This document shows, piece by piece, positions 21,244 through 27,409 of a stretch of 40,000 nucleotides of DNA. The stretch comes from Nitrosopumilus sp. (GTDB lineage Archaea > Thermoproteota > Nitrososphaeria > Nitrososphaerales > Nitrosopumilaceae). Location of the stretch: contig NZ_OZ253550.1 in assembly GCF_965262695.1 (NCBI RefSeq), positions 233,671-273,670 on the forward strand. The letters run 5' to 3'. The notes beneath the pieces were generated by a model that saw only the letters and a list, made by a program, of their open reading frames with translations, searched no databases and was not told the origin of the DNA. A program made the position numbers and the translations under genes. The first letter of the stretch is position 1. Each line of letters begins with the position of its first letter.

Positions 21244-22962
21244 GTGCCCGCTAAATATCAAAATCTCAGATTTTTGTACATGGTGGGCACGGGATACCTG
21301 TTTGCAGTTGGGATATTTTGCACATTTTTCCTAAATTCTGCCTATGCTCAAACTATGGGGGATCAGACTACTTTGTCAGGAGATCTACAAAACAATCCTG
21401 TTGCTCAGGACATTCTCAAAAAAATTGAGCAAAGCAAAAAATGGATTGAAAAAATTGAGCAACGAAATTTTGAAGATTCTAAACGACAATTAGAATTAGA
21501 ACAAAAACGCACAGAAGTACTACAAAGTTTGGAAGAAGATTTAAGAAAATGGGAGGAACTCTGGGGTTATTACACATTTGACAATATGATTGCAAGGGTA
21601 TTGGAAAATAGTCCTGCAAAAGACACATCTAGCATTTATGATCATCCTTTAAAATTCACTGCATCAAAGATTGATGCTGGACGAGAAGCGTTACAAAAAG
21701 TTATTTTGGCTGGTGGAGGTCCTGAAGAAGCAAGAGATGCATTTGTCAAAGCTGCCAAAATAACAAGAGCTGAAATGGTGTCTGCAAATGCCCTTTATAA
21801 TGTTCTAAACAATAATGCTTACTACAACCAACAAGTACTTTTTGATTCTGATGGTGGATTCAATTATGAACTCTCTGGAGAAGAATTAAGGAAATATTAT
21901 CGAGACTTTAGAACAAATCCAGAATATCTAAATGCAAACCCTTTTGATGAAATCTCTTGGGAGGATCTTGGTAGAACAAATTCTAGTACTGAATGTAGAC
22001 CTGGGCATGTTTTAGTTTACAGAACTCATGCAGACGATTATGTTTGTACAACAGAATACACAGCTGAGATGTGGGTTCGACACAATATGGGAAAAATTGT
22101 TGATGGCTCACATGGAGAATCTTATGCTGTGCTAACTGAACAGAAATTAAATAAAGACAGAATTTTGCAAAAAGCAGATAACTTAAACTCGAAAATCAAA
22201 TCAATGCAAATTCATTATGAAGAACGGATTTCAGAAACTATTGCAAAATATGCCTCTCTTATAGATGATATCGTCTCAGAAAAACAGGCTGAAGAAAAAC
22301 AAATTCTTGAAAATCTCATTCAGTCTGATGATGCTTCAAAAAAGATAACGAGTCAACAAATTGCCAATATTAGAGAAAAATTTGATGAATTTGAAAAAAA
22401 CATTCTGGATGAAAAAGATGACGTGTTGAAAATTTTAGAAGATCAACATCTAACCTCAATAGAGGAATTTGTAGATATTCACAATTCTGATGATGACCTT
22501 AAGATAGAATGGAATCATGACTATCCTATTTTTTATCCCTCTGCATACTATTTCCCACAAAACTCTGATTCAAATTCTATAATTAAGACTAGTTTTGATG
22601 ATGATGTCTCTGGTTTTATTGTTGATAATGCAAGTCTAAAAAATGCATTTGGTGAAAAAATACATTCATTGAAACCTGGCCAACTAGTTCAAGTGACTTC
22701 GGACATTACAAATCATGATGATATTTCAAAAAAATTTGCTTATCTAGTTGAGATTAGAGATGAGCAAAATCAAATTGTTCAACCATTAAAATGGATTACA
22801 GGACAACTTGATTCAGACCAAACTCTTAACTTGGGATTATCTTGGGTCCCAAAAAACACTGGCAATTTTTATGCAGATGTTTTTATTGGAACTAGCTTAG
22901 ACTTTGTATCTAATACAGAAACCATTTCAATTTCTGTAATTCCTTCAGATCATTCATCCTAA
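21244..22962 (+). CDS. secreted hypothetical protein (signal peptide, coiled-coil regions, two-Cys module, C-terminal beta-rich domain)
   Basis: 572-aa ORF with a GTG start. Hydrophobic N-terminus ending in SAYAQ. Module CRPGHVLVYRTHADDYVCTTEYTAEMWVRHNMG is shared with the subtilase C-terminus. Confidence 0.6.
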   Translation: MPAKYQNLRFLYMVGTGYLFAVGIFCTFFLNSAYAQTMGDQTTLSGDLQNNPVAQDILKKIEQSKKWIEKIEQRNFEDSKRQLELEQKRTEVLQSLEEDLRKWEELWGYYTFDNMIARVLENSPAKDTSSIYDHPLKFTASKIDAGREALQKVILAGGGPEEARDAFVKAAKITRAEMVSANALYNVLNNNAYYNQQVLFDSDGGFNYELSGEELRKYYRDFRTNPEYLNANPFDEISWEDLGRTNSSTECRPGHVLVYRTHADDYVCTTEYTAEMWVRHNMGKIVDGSHGESYAVLTEQKLNKDRILQKADNLNSKIKSMQIHYEERISETIAKYASLIDDIVSEKQAEEKQILENLIQSDDASKKITSQQIANIREKFDEFEKNILDEKDDVLKILEDQHLTSIEEFVDIHNSDDDLKIEWNHDYPIFYPSAYYFPQNSDSNSIIKTSFDDDVSGFIVDNASLKNAFGEKIHSLKPGQLVQVTSDITNHDDISKKFAYLVEIRDEQNQIVQPLKWITGQLDSDQTLNLGLSWVPKNTGNFYADVFIGTSLDFVSNTETISISVIPSDHSS

Positions 22963-22969
22963 TTATTCT

Positions 22970-23317
22970 TCAGTTATTTTTCTGCATAAAGAGATTCAAC
23001 ATTGTATGTCCCTTGTCTGTAATTGTGTATATCATGTTTGATCCAACTGCCTCTTTTTTAACAAAGTTGTAATCAACACATAGATGAAGATAGTTCAGAA
23101 ATGACTTTTTCATTCTGATCTTTGATTTTGAATACAATTCTGAAAATGTCATTGGATTTCCTCTTAATTGATACAATAATTTCAACAAAGACAAAGTACT
23201 GTAATCCCTGGTTCTTGCTTTTACTGCACCTAGGATTTCTTCATCCCTTTTGATTATGAAATCTTCGAATTGTTCTGCCACTTCTAGTGGTACATATGTT
23301 AGTCTTGCTCGCATCAT
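22970..23317 (-). CDS. putative winged-helix transcriptional regulator
   Basis: 115 aa. The segment LSLLKLLYQLRGNPMTFSELYSKSKIRMKKSFLNYLHLCVDYNFVKKE fits the helix-turn-helix plus wing pattern of ArsR/MarR-like wHTH proteins. Confidence 0.5.
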   Translation of the reverse strand: MMRARLTYVPLEVAEQFEDFIIKRDEEILGAVKARTRDYSTLSLLKLLYQLRGNPMTFSELYSKSKIRMKKSFLNYLHLCVDYNFVKKEAVGSNMIYTITDKGHTMLNLFMQKNN

Positions 23318-23333
23318 ACCGTATGGTACGGTA
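23317..23333. promoter_or_regulatory. perfect palindrome TACCGTA-tgg-TACGGTA abutting the wHTH gene start codon
   Basis: 7-bp arms with a 3-bp spacer, GC-rich against an AT-rich background. The first T is the last base of the start-codon complement. An AT-rich TATA-like stretch lies about 20-27 nt further upstream on the minus strand. Confidence 0.4.
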
Positions 23334-23504
23334 CATTACTTTATTAGTCTTTAACTTGAGCTTTGTTGATCTTTCTAGCTGATTTTTTTACACTTGTATT
23401 TGACGACTACCCATCAATTCATCACATATGATCTGAATACGATCTACTATTATCTGTGATAATGGCCTAATATCATAAATAGCCCATTTTTTTGAAAATT
23501 ATTT

Positions 23505-24086
23505 GTGAAAAAAATAGAGGCTGTAATTAGGAGAAAGAATTTTCCAACAATTAAATCTCATTTACATATTATTGGTAGTTACATTATAGATAAACGAAAT
23601 TTAGAAGATAGCAACATCTATGATGAGTCTAAAGGCTCACGTGTAGGTTCTACTGGTCTCAAATCAATCCCTCTTGCAAAAATCGAAATGGTAGTACCTG
23701 ACAAAGATGCAAGAAAGGTAGTTGAGATGATTTCCAAAAATTCTGGTTTGTCTGCAACTCATGGAGGAAAAATCTTTGTTTCTGAAATGGAAGAAGTTGT
23801 AGACATGGAAACAAATGATGCTACACAAGATCTTGAACTTGTTTTAGATGAAAAACCAGAACCAATAACATTACCAAAACGCAGTAGATTTGTCCCATTA
23901 CAAAAATTCACTTTACATAAACTCCAAGTAATTTATGAAGAAAATAAAGAAACTCTTAGAACTGATTACAGAATAAAATCATTTAGTGATTTTGTAAATC
24001 ATTGTATCATGAAATACCTTCCAACATTAGAAAAACAACTAAAGAATCCTACAATTGTTTATGAAAACAATTTTGGTGATTTTTAA
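23505..24086 (+). CDS. PII-like (GlnB-fold) domain protein with ~85-aa C-terminal extension (possible RHH)
   Basis: MKKIEAVIR..., KIEMVVPDKDARKVVEMI and GGKIFVSEMEEVVDM parallel PII strands b1, b3 and b4. The T-loop is extended. The C-terminal RSRFVPLQKFTLHKLQVIYEEN...IKSFSDFVNHCIMKYL has a strand-helix-helix pattern. GTG start. Confidence 0.65.
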   Translation: MKKIEAVIRRKNFPTIKSHLHIIGSYIIDKRNLEDSNIYDESKGSRVGSTGLKSIPLAKIEMVVPDKDARKVVEMISKNSGLSATHGGKIFVSEMEEVVDMETNDATQDLELVLDEKPEPITLPKRSRFVPLQKFTLHKLQVIYEENKETLRTDYRIKSFSDFVNHCIMKYLPTLEKQLKNPTIVYENNFGDF

Positions 24087-24181
24087 AAAATATAATCTGA
24101 AAACAACCATAATCCAACTAAAGTTAGGCCAACTGCGGCCATTATCACTTTTGCAATGGATATTTTCTTAGATGTTTTCAT
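24083..24181 (-). CDS. candidate 32-aa single-TM micro-protein (B)
   Basis: Hand translation: MKTSKKISIAKVIMAAVGLTLVGLWLFSDYIF. Its ATG overlaps the stop of micro-ORF A (ATGA). Confidence 0.35.
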   Translation of the reverse strand: MKTSKKISIAKVIMAAVGLTLVGLWLFSDYIF

Positions 24182-24306
24182 ATGAAGAATAATAATATCG
24201 GTGGTATAACAATTATTCCAATGATTACAGCTACCTTTGGGTAATCTTTAGGCTTGATTGGCTGCATTTTTTCTCTTTTGAATAATTTGCTTTTACGAAC
24301 ATTCAT
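24178..24306 (-). CDS. candidate 42-aa single-TM micro-protein (A)
   Basis: Hand translation: MNVRKSKLFKREKMQPIKPKDYPKVAVIIGIIVIPPILLFFI. It starts 11 nt after the PII gene stop. Confidence 0.35.
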   Translation of the reverse strand: MNVRKSKLFKREKMQPIKPKDYPKVAVIIGIIVIPPILLFFI

Positions 24307-24317
24307 CCAAAATCACA

Positions 24318-24647
24318 TTAGATTGTTGATTCGCCCTCTTCACCTGTTGCGATATCTACTGCACGCAATACCTGTGTGACAAAAATCTTACCTACTCTGC
24401 CTTTTTCTTTGATGATGTTTACCACTTCATCTTCTTTTGAATCAGGTATGATGGCTTCGATGAAATATTTGTCATTAAATTGAGGCACAAAAATCTCACT
24501 TCCTTTTGATGCGTGAATTTCAGGTCCTGGTCTCTTTCCTCTACCTCTTACCTTTGTAACTGTGAGACCGCCTATTCCGATATTCTTTAGTGCTTCACTT
24601 ATTGACATGACGTCATTTTCGCCAAGAATAGCTTCTATTTTGAGCAT
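24318..24647 (-). CDS. PII-family nitrogen regulatory protein
   Basis: 109 aa. MLKIEAIL..., GLTVTKVRGRGK (T-loop base), YFIEAIIPD and GKIFVTQVLRAVDIATGEEGE form the canonical PII layout. Divergent from amt. Confidence 0.8.
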   Translation of the reverse strand: MLKIEAILGENDVMSISEALKNIGIGGLTVTKVRGRGKRPGPEIHASKGSEIFVPQFNDKYFIEAIIPDSKEDEVVNIIKEKGRVGKIFVTQVLRAVDIATGEEGESTI

Positions 24648-24764
24648 TTGATAATTGTAATTTCAACTTGATAAATATAATTTCTGATTTTGTATACCAA
24701 ATGATTATCATTTGACAATCAAATTAGGATATTGTTATTAATTAAAAACTAATTTTTTTCTATA

Positions 24765-26072
24765 ATGGTACTTGATTCTGGAGATACAGCGTGGATGCTT
24801 GTAGCTGGAAGTCTTGTATTACTTATGATCCCTGCATTAGGTCTTTTTGAATCTGGTTTGTTACGAAAGAAAAATGCAGCTTCAATTTTCATGCAGATCT
24901 TTTTCGGATTGGCACTTTTGAGTGTGATGTGGTTTGTATTTGGATTTAGTTTATCGTTCAGTCCTTCAGAACATGGTTTAATCGGAGATATGGAATGGGT
25001 ATTCCTCAAGGGTGTACCTTCTGATGATTCATTACCCTTTGCTCCAACCATTCCTGGTGTACTGTTTGTAAAATTCCAATTGATGTTTGCATGTATTACT
25101 CCATTACTTCTTACAGGAACAATTGCTGAGAGAATGAAGTTTAGTTCCTTTATTGTATTCATATCTGCATGGTCTATGTTGATCTACTATCCTCTTGTCC
25201 ACTGGGTATGGGGTGGAGGTTGGCTATCTGAATTAGGTGTTGTAGACTTTGCTGGTGGTATTGTAATTCACACTAGTGTTGGTATGGCTGCTTTAGCTGC
25301 TGCATTGGTACTTGGAAAGAGAAGAAATTACGGTCCTGCCATAATGATTCCTCACAGTATCCCCCTTGCAGTTCTTGGTTCATCTTTGCTATGGCTTGGA
25401 TGGTTTGGCTTTAACGCAGGTAGTGCACTTGCAGCATCAGGTGGTGTTGCAGGTAACACCGTAATTGTAACTCATATGGCTTCTTCTGTTTCTGCTTTAA
25501 TTTGGGCAGGACTTTCATGGGTAAGAACAGGAAAACCATCTGTTGTTGCTACCATCAATGGTGCAATTGCAGGTCTTGCTGGAATTACTCCTGCATCAGG
25601 ATTTGTAAGTGCTGAACATGCATTTGTAATTGGAATTGCAATCGGTGTAATCTCTTATTCTGGTGTAGTACTATTCAAAGAAAAATTACACATTGATGAT
25701 GCACTTGATGTCAGCTCAGTCCACGGTGTTGCAGGTATTGTGGGTTCTCTTGCAATCGGTATATTTGCAAGTACTATGATTAACCCTGGCGGTGTTGATG
25801 GATTACTATTTGGTAATCCTGATCAATTATGGATTCAAGCAGTAGGTGTTGCAGTTGCAGCCGCAATTGGATTTGGTGGAACGTGGATTCTGATGCAGAT
25901 AATAAAACACTTGATGGGAATACGAGTCAGTGCTGAAGTTGAAGATGTTGGTCTTGACATAAGTGAGCATGCTGAATCTGCGTACTCTGACGAAGAAGAA
26001 TTCATGTTGGATATGGATACATATACTGATGAGTTACAAGAAAAAGACGAAATCTTTAGAAAGAGAAAATAG
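24765..26072 (+). CDS. amt: ammonium transporter (Amt/MEP/Rh family)
   Basis: DSGDTAWMLVAGSLVLLMIPALGLFESGLLR, DFAGGIVIHTSVGMAALAAALVLGKR, WFGFNAGSAL and VHGVAGIVGSLAIGIF. 11 TM helices. Acidic cytoplasmic C-terminal tail. Confidence 0.92.
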   Translation: MVLDSGDTAWMLVAGSLVLLMIPALGLFESGLLRKKNAASIFMQIFFGLALLSVMWFVFGFSLSFSPSEHGLIGDMEWVFLKGVPSDDSLPFAPTIPGVLFVKFQLMFACITPLLLTGTIAERMKFSSFIVFISAWSMLIYYPLVHWVWGGGWLSELGVVDFAGGIVIHTSVGMAALAAALVLGKRRNYGPAIMIPHSIPLAVLGSSLLWLGWFGFNAGSALAASGGVAGNTVIVTHMASSVSALIWAGLSWVRTGKPSVVATINGAIAGLAGITPASGFVSAEHAFVIGIAIGVISYSGVVLFKEKLHIDDALDVSSVHGVAGIVGSLAIGIFASTMINPGGVDGLLFGNPDQLWIQAVGVAVAAAIGFGGTWILMQIIKHLMGIRVSAEVEDVGLDISEHAESAYSDEEEFMLDMDTYTDELQEKDEIFRKRK

Positions 26073-26087
26073 GTTTGGTGTATTTTC

Positions 26088-26456
26088 TTGGGAATTAATT
26101 ATAATGACATCACAAAAAAAATCCTCGATTTAGATCCTCAAGTAAGATTTGCTGGTGTTGCAAACAATAAGGGTGAACTTGCTGCAGGAGGGCAGAAAGA
26201 TGATGTTGAGAAACTATTGGTTGGTGATGAAGTAAAAATGTCCATTCATTATGCTTTACAAAAACGAGATTTGTATACAAATTTGGCATACAAAATTGGT
26301 AATGAGACTTCTTCCATTACAGAATATGAAAAAGTCACAATGATAACTATCCCAATAAACTCTAGTGAGCTATTCTTAATCAGCACTGAACCCCGTGCAG
26401 ATTATTTGAAAATCATTGACACTGTTCGCTCTGAACTTGGTTTATCTGGTGATTAA
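26088..26456 (+). CDS. hypothetical protein (possibly Roadblock/LC7-like alpha/beta fold)
   Basis: 122-aa ORF starting (TTG) 15 nt after the amt stop. The alternating pattern VRFAGVANNKGELAAGG...KVTMITIPINSSELFLISTEP loosely recalls Roadblock/LC7. This cannot be verified here. Confidence 0.45.
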   Translation: MGINYNDITKKILDLDPQVRFAGVANNKGELAAGGQKDDVEKLLVGDEVKMSIHYALQKRDLYTNLAYKIGNETSSITEYEKVTMITIPINSSELFLISTEPRADYLKIIDTVRSELGLSGD

Positions 26457-26601
26457 TTTAGTACGAAGAATTACAGTCACCATGGATGATAAATTAGTAA
26501 AAAAAATCTATCTTCTTCAAGCCAAAGAAATCACAAAATCTCAAAAACACATTAGTTTCTCAAACATCATCAATTTGCAATTGAAACGTGCACTAAAATA
26601 G
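26449..26601 (+). CDS. putative ribbon-helix-helix (CopG/Arc-like) DNA-binding protein
   Basis: RRITVTMDDKLVKKIYLLQAKEI...ISFSNIINLQLKRAL gives a strand-helix-helix pattern. I favour the in-frame GTG at 26449, which overlaps the upstream stop as GTGATTAA. The track's TTG at 26416 is the longest option. Confidence 0.45.
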   Translation: MINLVRRITVTMDDKLVKKIYLLQAKEITKSQKHISFSNIINLQLKRALK

Positions 26602-26845: not shown

Positions 26846-27409
26846 TTAAGTCAGAAATGCAATTCTGGCAATATCTCTTTCATGAAAAAACATTTTTTCT
26901 CCAAATTCAATTTCAGACGTAATCTCATTTTTTTCATCACGAATTATTTGTTTAGGGTTTACAATAACTATGTCTTTTTTATCTTCAACATCTAGTCTAA
27001 AAAGTCGACCTTTATACTCAGTACCTGCTATGGTTATCACAATTATCCAAGGAGCATTATCATATTCTGTAGCCGTTTTTTCCCATGTGTCAAGACGAAA
27101 TCGATTAGATCTTCGACGTCTTAAAATCATTCCAACTCCAAATCCAACTGCTAAAGTGATTCCAAATAAAATCAAGAAATTTGTTGGAATAAAGAATTTG
27201 TCTCGTAAAATATCTAGACTTGTGATACCCGTAATCAATGTGTAGAAAAATATTATTACCATACTAAGACTAAAACTTGAAATTGTAATTTTGAATTCTG
27301 TTTGCTTATTTCCATAATGTCCTAACCATCTAATTATTGTAAATGTGATAAAACCTGGAATCAATAAAATTACAACAATTAATGCATCTGCTAAGGATGG
27401 TAATGCCAT
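26846..27409 (-). CDS. hypothetical membrane protein (3 TM plus C-terminal beta-rich soluble domain)
   Basis: 187-aa ORF. N-terminal LLIPGFITF TM and two further TMs, an RRRRSNR stop-transfer, then WIIVITIAGTEYKGRLFRLDVEDKKDIVIVNP beta-strand-like repeats. Confidence 0.55.
   Translation of the reverse strand: MALPSLADALIVVILLIPGFITFTIIRWLGHYGNKQTEFKITISSFSLSMVIIFFYTLITGITSLDILRDKFFIPTNFLILFGITLAVGFGVGMILRRRRSNRFRLDTWEKTATEYDNAPWIIVITIAGTEYKGRLFRLDVEDKKDIVIVNPKQIIRDEKNEITSEIEFGEKMFFHERDIARIAFLT

Follow-up and report, generated by a model that had tools for sequence, protein, structure and literature searches.

A conserved Amt–PII locus of Nitrosopumilus with an operator-like palindrome array, two membrane microproteins and a candidate PII-type regulator

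Introduction

In Escherichia coli and most other prokaryotes the gene of the PII protein GlnK lies directly beside that of the ammonium transporter AmtB, and GlnK plugs AmtB through its T-loop. Nitrogen status is also coupled to amt/gln transcription, by NrpR in methanogens and by the PII-PipX-NtcA and GlnK-TnrA systems; in all of these PII and the protein that binds DNA are distinct polypeptide chains, and NrpR has the operator GGAA-N6-TTCC. For the very abundant ammonia-oxidising archaea (AOA) ammonia is both fuel and nitrogen source. Here we describe an ammonium transporter (Amt) locus of Nitrosopumilus sp., located at 22970-26601 of a 40-kb window, which is the whole stretch of DNA analysed (assembly GCF_965262695.1, contig NZ_OZ253550.1, 233,671-273,670; coordinates of the locus are those of the window), where the amt gene is accompanied by two PII-like genes, two genes for membrane microproteins and an array of short palindromes in its promoter.

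For group 1.1a AOA (neutrophilic Nitrosopumilales), PII genes near the low-affinity Amt have been reported by Lehtovirta-Morley et al. 2016 (PMC4836417, Fig. 4C), and the present locus is of the same type, with PII beside Amt1. Both AOA amt types and their expression have been discussed (PMC7490402), and a 2023 review carries the bacterial GlnK/GlnB picture over to AOA (PMC10432482). A sequence-only reading of the present locus had proposed an undescribed module of ammonium sensing and transport control. Since the proximity of PII and Amt1 is published, the module is not wholly undescribed, and four elements are new: the operator array; the fusion of a PII-like with a strand-helix-helix domain (hereafter PII-CTD) as a candidate regulator; the pair of microproteins; and PII effector sites that depart from the canonical residues. 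The literature passages that could be searched describe neither the PII-CTD fusion nor the micro-ORFs (ORF, open reading frame), the linkage to DUF6659 or the operator array; they mention neither the Nmar_058x neighbours nor DUF6659, and no transcription factor or operator for AOA ammonium uptake was found in them.

Results and Discussion

A conserved six-gene neighbourhood around amt

All eight ORFs attributed to 22970-26601 by the sequence-only reading are present there. The amt gene (24765-26072, plus strand) encodes a transporter of 435 aa without signal peptide, which matches Pfam Ammonium_transp (4e-114, 381.9 bits, cut-off 23.2) and TIGR00836 (415.5 bits, cut-off 343.3); from the lack of a signal peptide, the adjoining PII genes and the published Amt types we infer that it is of the Amt1, or 'low-affinity', type. 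Upstream, and transcribed away from amt, lies the gene of PII109, a divergent GlnK-like PII protein (24318-24647, minus strand), followed by those of mTM42, a microprotein of 42 aa with a C-terminal transmembrane (TM) helix (24178-24306, minus strand), and mTM32, a single-pass membrane microprotein of 32 aa (24083-24181, minus strand), the last of this operon. PII-CTD (23505-24086, plus strand; 193 aa, GTG start) consists of a PII-like domain, a linker and a C-terminal domain, and the gene of a 122-aa DUF6659 protein (26088-26456, plus strand) begins 15 nt past amt. The locus is best explained as three transcription units, namely amt-DUF6659, the divergent PII109-mTM42-mTM32, and PII-CTD, convergent with the latter; mTM42 begins 11 nt past PII109 and the two microprotein genes overlap, so that these three genes probably share one transcript.

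We followed this arrangement in two samples of loci. The first, anchored on Amt in species-representative genomes, is unbiased and small, only about 10 archaeal loci, because generic Amt peptide patterns saturated the scan; the second, anchored on PII-CTD, comprises 80 metagenome loci, all from close relatives (76-94% identity), in which genes were counted by tblastn over the loci whose contig was long enough to reach them. A PII109 orthologue adjoins Amt divergently in 8/10 of the Nitrosopumilaceae-like loci of the first sample (L001-L007 and L009), and in four of these eight (L001, L002, L005, L009) PII-CTD adjoins as well; two deeper archaeal loci, L010 and L072, show the classical order, amt and then PII. 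In the metagenome loci the order is PII-CTD> <mTM32 <mTM42 <PII109 Amt> DUF6659> (arrowheads give the direction) wherever the contig suffices: Amt was found in 58/58 loci, DUF6659 in 40/40, PII109 in 70/71, mTM42 in 73/76 and mTM32 in 71/76. These six genes form a module whose conservation is far above chance. By contrast, a gene for a probable winged-helix protein (wHTH115) on the upstream side, in 16/63 loci, and a small ribbon-helix-helix (RHH)-like ORF, in 6/40, are for that reason lineage-specific neighbours outside the module. The divergent, multi-component and Amt-centred arrangement that had been proposed is thus real and conserved, and for the six genes it withstands the refutation that the proposal itself had named, a neighbourhood scattered in relatives; a shared cis-element links its promoters (see below). 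Its membership differs from the proposal, which had counted the wHTH and RHH genes in.

The module also reaches beyond close relatives. In the distant locus L163 (family member P0131) the triad is kept in the order PII-CTD> <PII Amt> Amt>, at identities of about 35% for PII-CTD, 46% for Amt and 29% for PII; this locus (L163 669-5662 and 7140-9933) has two tandem amt genes and a third PII gene, and upstream of its PII-CTD lie genes for a dCache-PAS histidine kinase, a response regulator and a guanylate-cyclase-like protein. In L002 DUF6659 has shifted to the other side yet stays within the cluster, beside two different small TM ORFs, and in L003 (Nitrosopumilus sp. BACL13) the microproteins remain with PII109 despite the absence of PII-CTD. 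Single loci show further variation. In L003 (787-1056, minus strand) an additional ORF, for a soluble product of 89 aa, separates the two micro-TM genes; in L135 (5555-5815, minus strand) Amt and DUF6659 have a further PII-like gene between them, with 37% identity to PII109; and L006 (5177-5881, minus strand), where PII-CTD is absent and the operator nearly gone, has two tandem PII109 paralogues upstream of Amt. In the metagenome-assembled genome of L009 (4738-5314) PII-CTD is split over two frames near residue 25, by a frameshift pseudogene or an assembly error. The orthologue in L169 (3388-3952, P0262/P0124) has been called from an internal ATG as 152 aa, the full N-terminus MKKIEAII... starting from an upstream TTG, so that database entries of the PII-CTD family are partly truncated. 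For two other members, P0125 and P0128, the contigs are too short to inform on the neighbourhood.

Compared with amtB-glnK, the PII gene lies directly beside amt here too. The differences are that transcription is divergent, from a shared promoter region of 117 bp, that DUF6659 and not PII follows amt, no glnK being found directly downstream of amt and co-transcribed with it, that there is a second PII-like gene, and that two microproteins and DUF6659 are probably co-transcribed with PII109 and amt, respectively.

An operator-like array between the divergent promoters

The 117 bp between PII109 and amt contain palindromes phased by 11 bp between two TATA-like boxes. In an alignment of this region from 57 unique loci, three conserved blocks stand out from otherwise diverging sequence. 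The block AAATATAATTTCTGATTT (24673-24690, minus strand), with at least 90% conserved columns in the 57 regions, contains the TATA-like box of the PII109 operon, centred about 31 nt before the ATG; the block TTAGGATATTGTTATTAATT (24724-24743, plus strand) contains that of amt, centred about 25 nt before the ATG. Between them, at 24691-24723, stand three 11-bp-phased units, TGTATACCA, TGATTATCA and TGACAATCA, with the 9-bp palindrome consensus TGATwATCA. Recurring every 11 bp, the palindromes lie on one face of the helix. Dimeric regulators that bind cooperatively classically target short palindromes spaced by one helical turn, and the metboxes of MetJ are the textbook RHH example of such arrays. 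The position just upstream of the B recognition element (BRE)/TATA on both sides suggests that one site controls both divergent operons; as judged from the alignments, the array would be operator-like and a putative control site for both, compatible with activation and with repression.

A related element was found in the promoter of PII-CTD. Alignment of 70 unique upstream regions revealed a conserved block, TGAtAATgAcCatTTCTCATAAATA, around a single unit, TGATAATGG (23457-23465; consensus TGAtAATgA), which lies 8 nt upstream of the TATA-like box CATAAATAG (23474-23482, plus strand), itself centred about 27 nt before the GTG start. The distance from unit to TATA-like box equals that from unit 1 to the TATA-like block of PII109. 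In all four promoters of the region, including that of wHTH115 (23474-23505, 24647-24683, 24736-24765 and 23317-23347), a TATA-like box lies with its centre 25-31 nt upstream of the start codon, which suggests leaderless or near-leaderless mRNAs; a sigma-70 promoter and terminator scan is inapplicable to archaea.

The array is present in two or three units in 50/57 regions and is expanded to six in L100 and L153 and to 11 perfect period-11 copies of TTTGATAATCA in L134 (9193-9313). This is natural variation in the copy number of a regulatory repeat, through which amt expression might be adjusted from one population to another. Loci of other genera (L002, L003, L007) contain the same units. L163 has a related form of them, and its second amt gene, too, is preceded by a long array. 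Across 771 kb of DNA from related archaea all phased pairs, those of that second amt included, lie ahead of amt genes and nowhere else, and within the window the paired motif is unique to the amt promoter. A scan of viral contigs for the operator gave 21 matches, none of them near amt or PII genes.

Two PII domains with non-canonical effector sites

Both PII109 and the N-terminal domain of PII-CTD have the PII fold (about 112 aa, beta-alpha-beta-beta-alpha-beta, matched by the P-II model). PII109 matches Pfam P-II over its full length (2.6e-16) and 37 PDB chains of PII proteins; for the PII-CTD domain the Pfam match is partial (1.8e-10, residues 44-103), a PDB profile aligns with residues 1-111 (2.5e-9), and Foldseek with the full-length model returned PII structures only. 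This, together with a conserved C-terminal domain of about 70 aa, bears out the earlier description of a PII-like protein with an extra C-terminal domain. Of the 'canonical-size PII' seen in PII109, the size is indeed canonical and the sequence is not: both proteins score far under the NCBIfam equivalog cut-offs for GlnB/GlnK, and neither keeps the canonical effector-site set (G27, G35, G37, R38, Q39, K58, G87, G89, K90, R101, R103).

With respect to E. coli GlnB, PII109 retains the fold and G27, G35, G37, K58, G89 and K90; it carries the changes R38K, Q39R, Y51I, R101D and R103A, and its B-loop is two residues shorter by deletion of G87/D88. Its T-loop is of similar length to that in the amtB-glnK system, with K58 kept and a basic residue, Lys, at the position of R47; the loss of Q39, Y51, R101 and R103 and the shorter B-loop set it apart from that system. 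PII-CTD has gone further: compared with Archaeoglobus fulgidus GlnK2, it has lost G27, T29, G35, G37, R38, Q39, K58, G84, G87, R101 and R103 (G27I, G35D, G37N, R38I, Q39Y, K58L, G87H, R101D and R103E among the substitutions) and retains only G89-K90-I-F. Neither protein has a modifiable T-loop residue (Y51 or S49), PII109 having Ile at Y51 and the T-loop of PII-CTD being unalignable to the signature; the latter region is almost invariant within Nitrosopumilus and hence under constraint. PII proteins bind ATP/ADP and Mg-2-oxoglutarate through exactly the residues that are lost here. Both PII domains are therefore divergent and lack key canonical ATP/2-oxoglutarate residues, and with these lost the AOA PII proteins may sense something else.

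The C-terminal domain of PII-CTD

PII-CTD is built of the PII-like domain (residues 1-104), a variable linker (105-123) and a conserved basic strand-helix-helix domain (about 124-193), which starts with PKRSRFVPLQKFTL and is highly conserved. Searched alone, this domain yielded 17 clusters only, among 1.84 billion representative proteins. The multi-domain members of the family open with a PII-like MKKIEA... module. Two stand-alone homologues, of 57 and 68 aa, show the strand-helix-helix pattern, e.g. GFKTVTLREKVIEKIREYYEENKEEL...RSFSDFLNFILDAYL; the one of 57 aa (P0137, L166 5001-5174) lies divergently beside a provirus-like module (Phage_capsid_4) and near a VapB/ParE pair, and such a provirus capsid neighbourhood is a typical place for a small regulator. 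Throughout the family the most conserved segment is the basic KRSRLVPLQKxT, and NCBI labels some PII-CTD orthologues 'transcriptional regulator'.

An AlphaFold2 model of the domain alone (pLDDT 83) has an extended basic N-terminus and helices at 9-24, 26-33 and 38-58, and the predicted monomer would fit an RHH monomer in which the strand forms only in the dimer, the RHH pattern being an N-terminal basic strand and two helices within some 45-60 aa, functional as a dimer. RHH proteins are also among the nearest functional parallels. MetJ binds tandem short palindromic boxes cooperatively, and in NikR an RHH domain is joined to a ferredoxin-like (ACT-type) ligand-binding oligomerisation domain; the present locus likewise has tandem short palindromes, and PII-CTD joins a PII domain, ferredoxin-like in fold, to a strand-helix-helix domain. 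The differences are a unit of 11 bp instead of 8 bp, the reversed domain order, with the sensor N-terminal in PII-CTD, a sensor that would be trimeric with a dimeric reader, and the absence of any detectable sequence or significant fold match to these proteins. Regulators of the Lrp/AsnC (FFRP) family, common in archaea, likewise combine a DNA-binding domain with a small beta-alpha-beta-beta-alpha-beta domain for ligand sensing and oligomerisation; they have an N-terminal HTH followed by RAM, as opposed to PII followed by a C-terminal strand-helix-helix domain in PII-CTD, and no Pfam match relates the two. With respect to NrpR, NtcA and TnrA, sensor and putative reader would share one chain in PII-CTD, and the operators differ.

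In Nitrosotenuis, the segment of the domain and the operator units may vary together. Two independent genomes (L005 and L169) combine the Nitrosotenuis-type segment TRNRLVSLQKHT with the variant units TTGTATAACAA, the pairing considered being KRSRLVPLQK versus TRNRLVSLQK alongside TGATAATCA versus TGTATAACA. This is a hint of covariation between protein and operator, and it could also be lineage drift.

The microproteins mTM32 and mTM42

The 'two coupled micro-TM ORFs' of the sequence-only reading proved to be real genes under purifying selection. In a direct ORF scan both are intact in 64/64 unique orthologous regions, and the 4-nt overlap of mTM42 and mTM32 (ATGA) is kept in all 64/64 sequences; frames, start codons and overlap are preserved despite 10-45% amino-acid divergence. 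Changes are concentrated at third codon positions, with a pairwise dN/dS of 0.19 for mTM42 and 0.27 for mTM32. Each protein has a short basic N-terminus and one hydrophobic helix, and the cytoplasmic basic N-terminal peptide of mTM42, RK(S/N)KLFxRE(K/E)M, is conserved. These are conserved microproteins that gene callers are likely to overlook.

An analogue exists in cyanobacteria, where the transporter SbtA, the PII-like regulator SbtB and the small membrane protein SbtC assemble into a single membrane complex (bioRxiv 10.1101/2025.11.25.690420). Here, too, the genes for a transporter, a PII-like regulator and small membrane proteins lie together; the substrate (bicarbonate in the cyanobacterial case), the proteins and the domain of life differ, and the likeness, which on our side is known from genes, is one of analogy only. 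By this analogy, the two microproteins might assemble or tether an Amt-PII complex at the membrane.

A candidate regulator for the array

How could these parts work together? In the model that we favour, a dimeric regulator would bind the units cooperatively and control amt, the PII operon and, in addition, the PII-CTD gene in common. As binder, PII-CTD itself would be the best candidate: an autoregulated PII-type transcription factor whose degenerate PII-like domain would serve as an oligomerising sensor and whose orphan C-terminal domain, a basic extended segment with helices, would be an RHH-like DNA reader; PII109 would act on Amt post-translationally, in GlnK fashion. We infer the identity of the binder, and the mechanism beyond conservation in general, from the following observations. 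PII-CTD is the best candidate because no other regulator-like gene goes with the array in all of Nitrosopumilus and also in L163, because its own promoter carries a unit, and because its most conserved segment is basic.

That the locus represents, in the form found in Nitrosopumilus, the Amt1-PII locus for control of ammonium uptake, with a regulator of this kind, appears to us an evenly balanced proposition. Its sharpest version is more tentative: PII-CTD would be a one-component PII-type transcription factor, the first protein of the PII superfamily with a DNA-binding domain of its own, reading the arrays that precede amt, the PII109 operon and its own gene, and the microproteins would belong to an Amt-PII membrane complex as structural subunits. 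If this is true, PII-CTD would be the nitrogen regulator still missing from the picture of marine ammonia-oxidising archaea. The locus supplies, in any case, a defined cis-element in the amt promoter and a single best candidate regulator of unusual architecture.

Several observations weigh against this model. The C-terminal domain has no significant match in Pfam, NCBIfam, PHROGs or PDB, by single-sequence or by profile search; Foldseek with its model gave one non-significant match, the RHH protein ParB (3no7_B, E 8, probability 0.10); and hhalign of its family against that of the neighbouring small RHH protein gave a probability of 3%, so that no homology is claimed between the two. Neither sequence nor structure matches thus place the domain among the RHH proteins, and, all homology tests being negative or non-significant, it is an orphan for which 'RHH-like DNA reader' is a hypothesis and not a classification. 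Co-occurrence is imperfect too: operator-like units stand in L003 and L007 with no PII-CTD beside them, and L004 and L006 have neither units nor PII-CTD. Moreover, the PII-like domain of PII-CTD is without nearly all canonical nucleotide and 2-oxoglutarate contacts, and with R101, R103, Q39 and Y51 missing and the B-loop shortened in PII109, GlnK-like behaviour of this protein is an assumption.

Some of the same observations would be expected if the array were real and bound by a regulator encoded elsewhere, for example a global nitrogen regulator or one of the TrmB/Lrp type, the C-terminal domain being then a module for protein-protein contact or oligomerisation that targets Amt or an enzyme. 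The missing family match of the domain and the units kept in L003 and L007 speak for this explanation, as does the member P0132, which is encoded among chemotaxis genes and not beside amt. We hold it to be a possible but rather unlikely account, for PII-CTD is the sole regulator-like gene always found with the operator in Nitrosopumilus, and again in L163, a unit stands in its own promoter, and its best conserved segment is basic; the stand-alone homologues of 57-68 aa resemble small regulators, and in Nitrosotenuis the variants of protein and operator shift together.

A more sceptical explanation takes the 11-bp repeats for a promoter element of curved DNA or for an AT-rich microsatellite prone to slippage, and sees in the cluster no more than the PII-Amt1 pair already described, beside which other genes happen to lie. 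The region is AT-rich, the copy number leaps to 6 and 11 perfect copies as it would by slippage, and the wHTH and RHH genes are indeed incidental. We nevertheless find this improbable, since the palindromic core is kept across lineages whose Amt proteins are only about 46% identical, the flanks diverge while the units are fixed, phased pairs are absent elsewhere in the 771 kb, and a single unit stands at the matching position of a second promoter; the micro-ORFs and DUF6659, for their part, are syntenic in essentially all loci, under purifying selection. Regulation of the amt promoter by wHTH115 or the small RHH protein, both small putative DNA-binding proteins encoded less than 2 kb from amt, is very improbable, as they are present in 16/63 and 6/40 loci against a nearly universal operator and wHTH115 has a different palindrome of its own, suggesting self-regulation.

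Accessory genes and other features of the window

For wHTH115 (22970-23317, minus strand; 115 aa) the sequence-only reading had described a wHTH regulator with a palindrome at its start. The palindrome, TACCGTA-N3-TACGGTA at 23317-23333, does abut the start codon, and in 17 unique loci its arms are conserved and its spacer variable; the wHTH assignment rests on sub-threshold Pfam matches (DUF4364, DUF7347 and HTH_45, E 0.005-0.02), and the best PDB matches, AspA and NmtR, are weak (E 0.5-1.2). The palindrome lies between the start codon and a TATA-like box, TTTATTAG (23340-23347), about 26 nt before it, and wHTH115 most likely regulates itself; the palindrome looks like a putative self-repression site, unrelated to the amt operator. 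The 'RHH protein' is present as an ORF, listed at 26416-26601 (plus strand), and its RHH assignment likewise depends on sub-threshold matches (RHH_1, E 0.03-0.12; best PDB match the N-terminal RHH strand of NikR, E 0.77). Since conservation among orthologues begins only at (K/R)R(I/V)T(I/V), its true start is likely the TTG at 26461, 4 nt past the stop codon of DUF6659, which would give a product of 46 aa (26461-26601).

The protein encoded after amt belongs to DUF6659 (30.1 bits, Pfam cut-off 27), as do 12/12 orthologues. A relation outside this family was sought in PDB and Pfam and none was found, a profile search adding to the family size only; the order of predicted elements, alpha-beta-beta-alpha-beta-beta-alpha, might be read from the residues as roadblock/LC7-like, and is only such a reading. 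A 137-aa ORF within amt (24749-25162, minus strand) was rejected as a gene, being an antisense shadow; such shadow ORFs also occur in L002, L003, L005 and L007 because amt is conserved.

The window has a low G+C content of about 33%, and the close relatives of the encoded proteins are all from Nitrosopumilus or other Nitrosopumilaceae. Scans for genes and RNAs (Rfam, tRNA) revealed no further nitrogen gene, tRNA or Rfam family in the window, and PADLOC indicated no link to defence systems; the remaining genes are housekeeping ones, for a Lys-tRNA synthetase, an ELP3-like radical SAM protein, two Na+/H+ exchangers, a histidine kinase and a Ca2+/Na+ exchanger. Downstream of the cluster a DUF6338 membrane protein is encoded (26846-27409, minus strand), a position not kept in other loci. 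Upstream, at 21244-22962 (plus strand), lies the gene of a large secreted protein without a Pfam match, which diverges fast, with 45-63% identity where neighbouring genes have 85-99%. In Nitrosotenuis loci (L005 2992-4617 and L007 3973-5460) a different secreted protein was observed, with C-terminal repeats of the form IPxWI(K/R)NNAKWWADGTIGDSDFVxGIQ(Y/F)LI.

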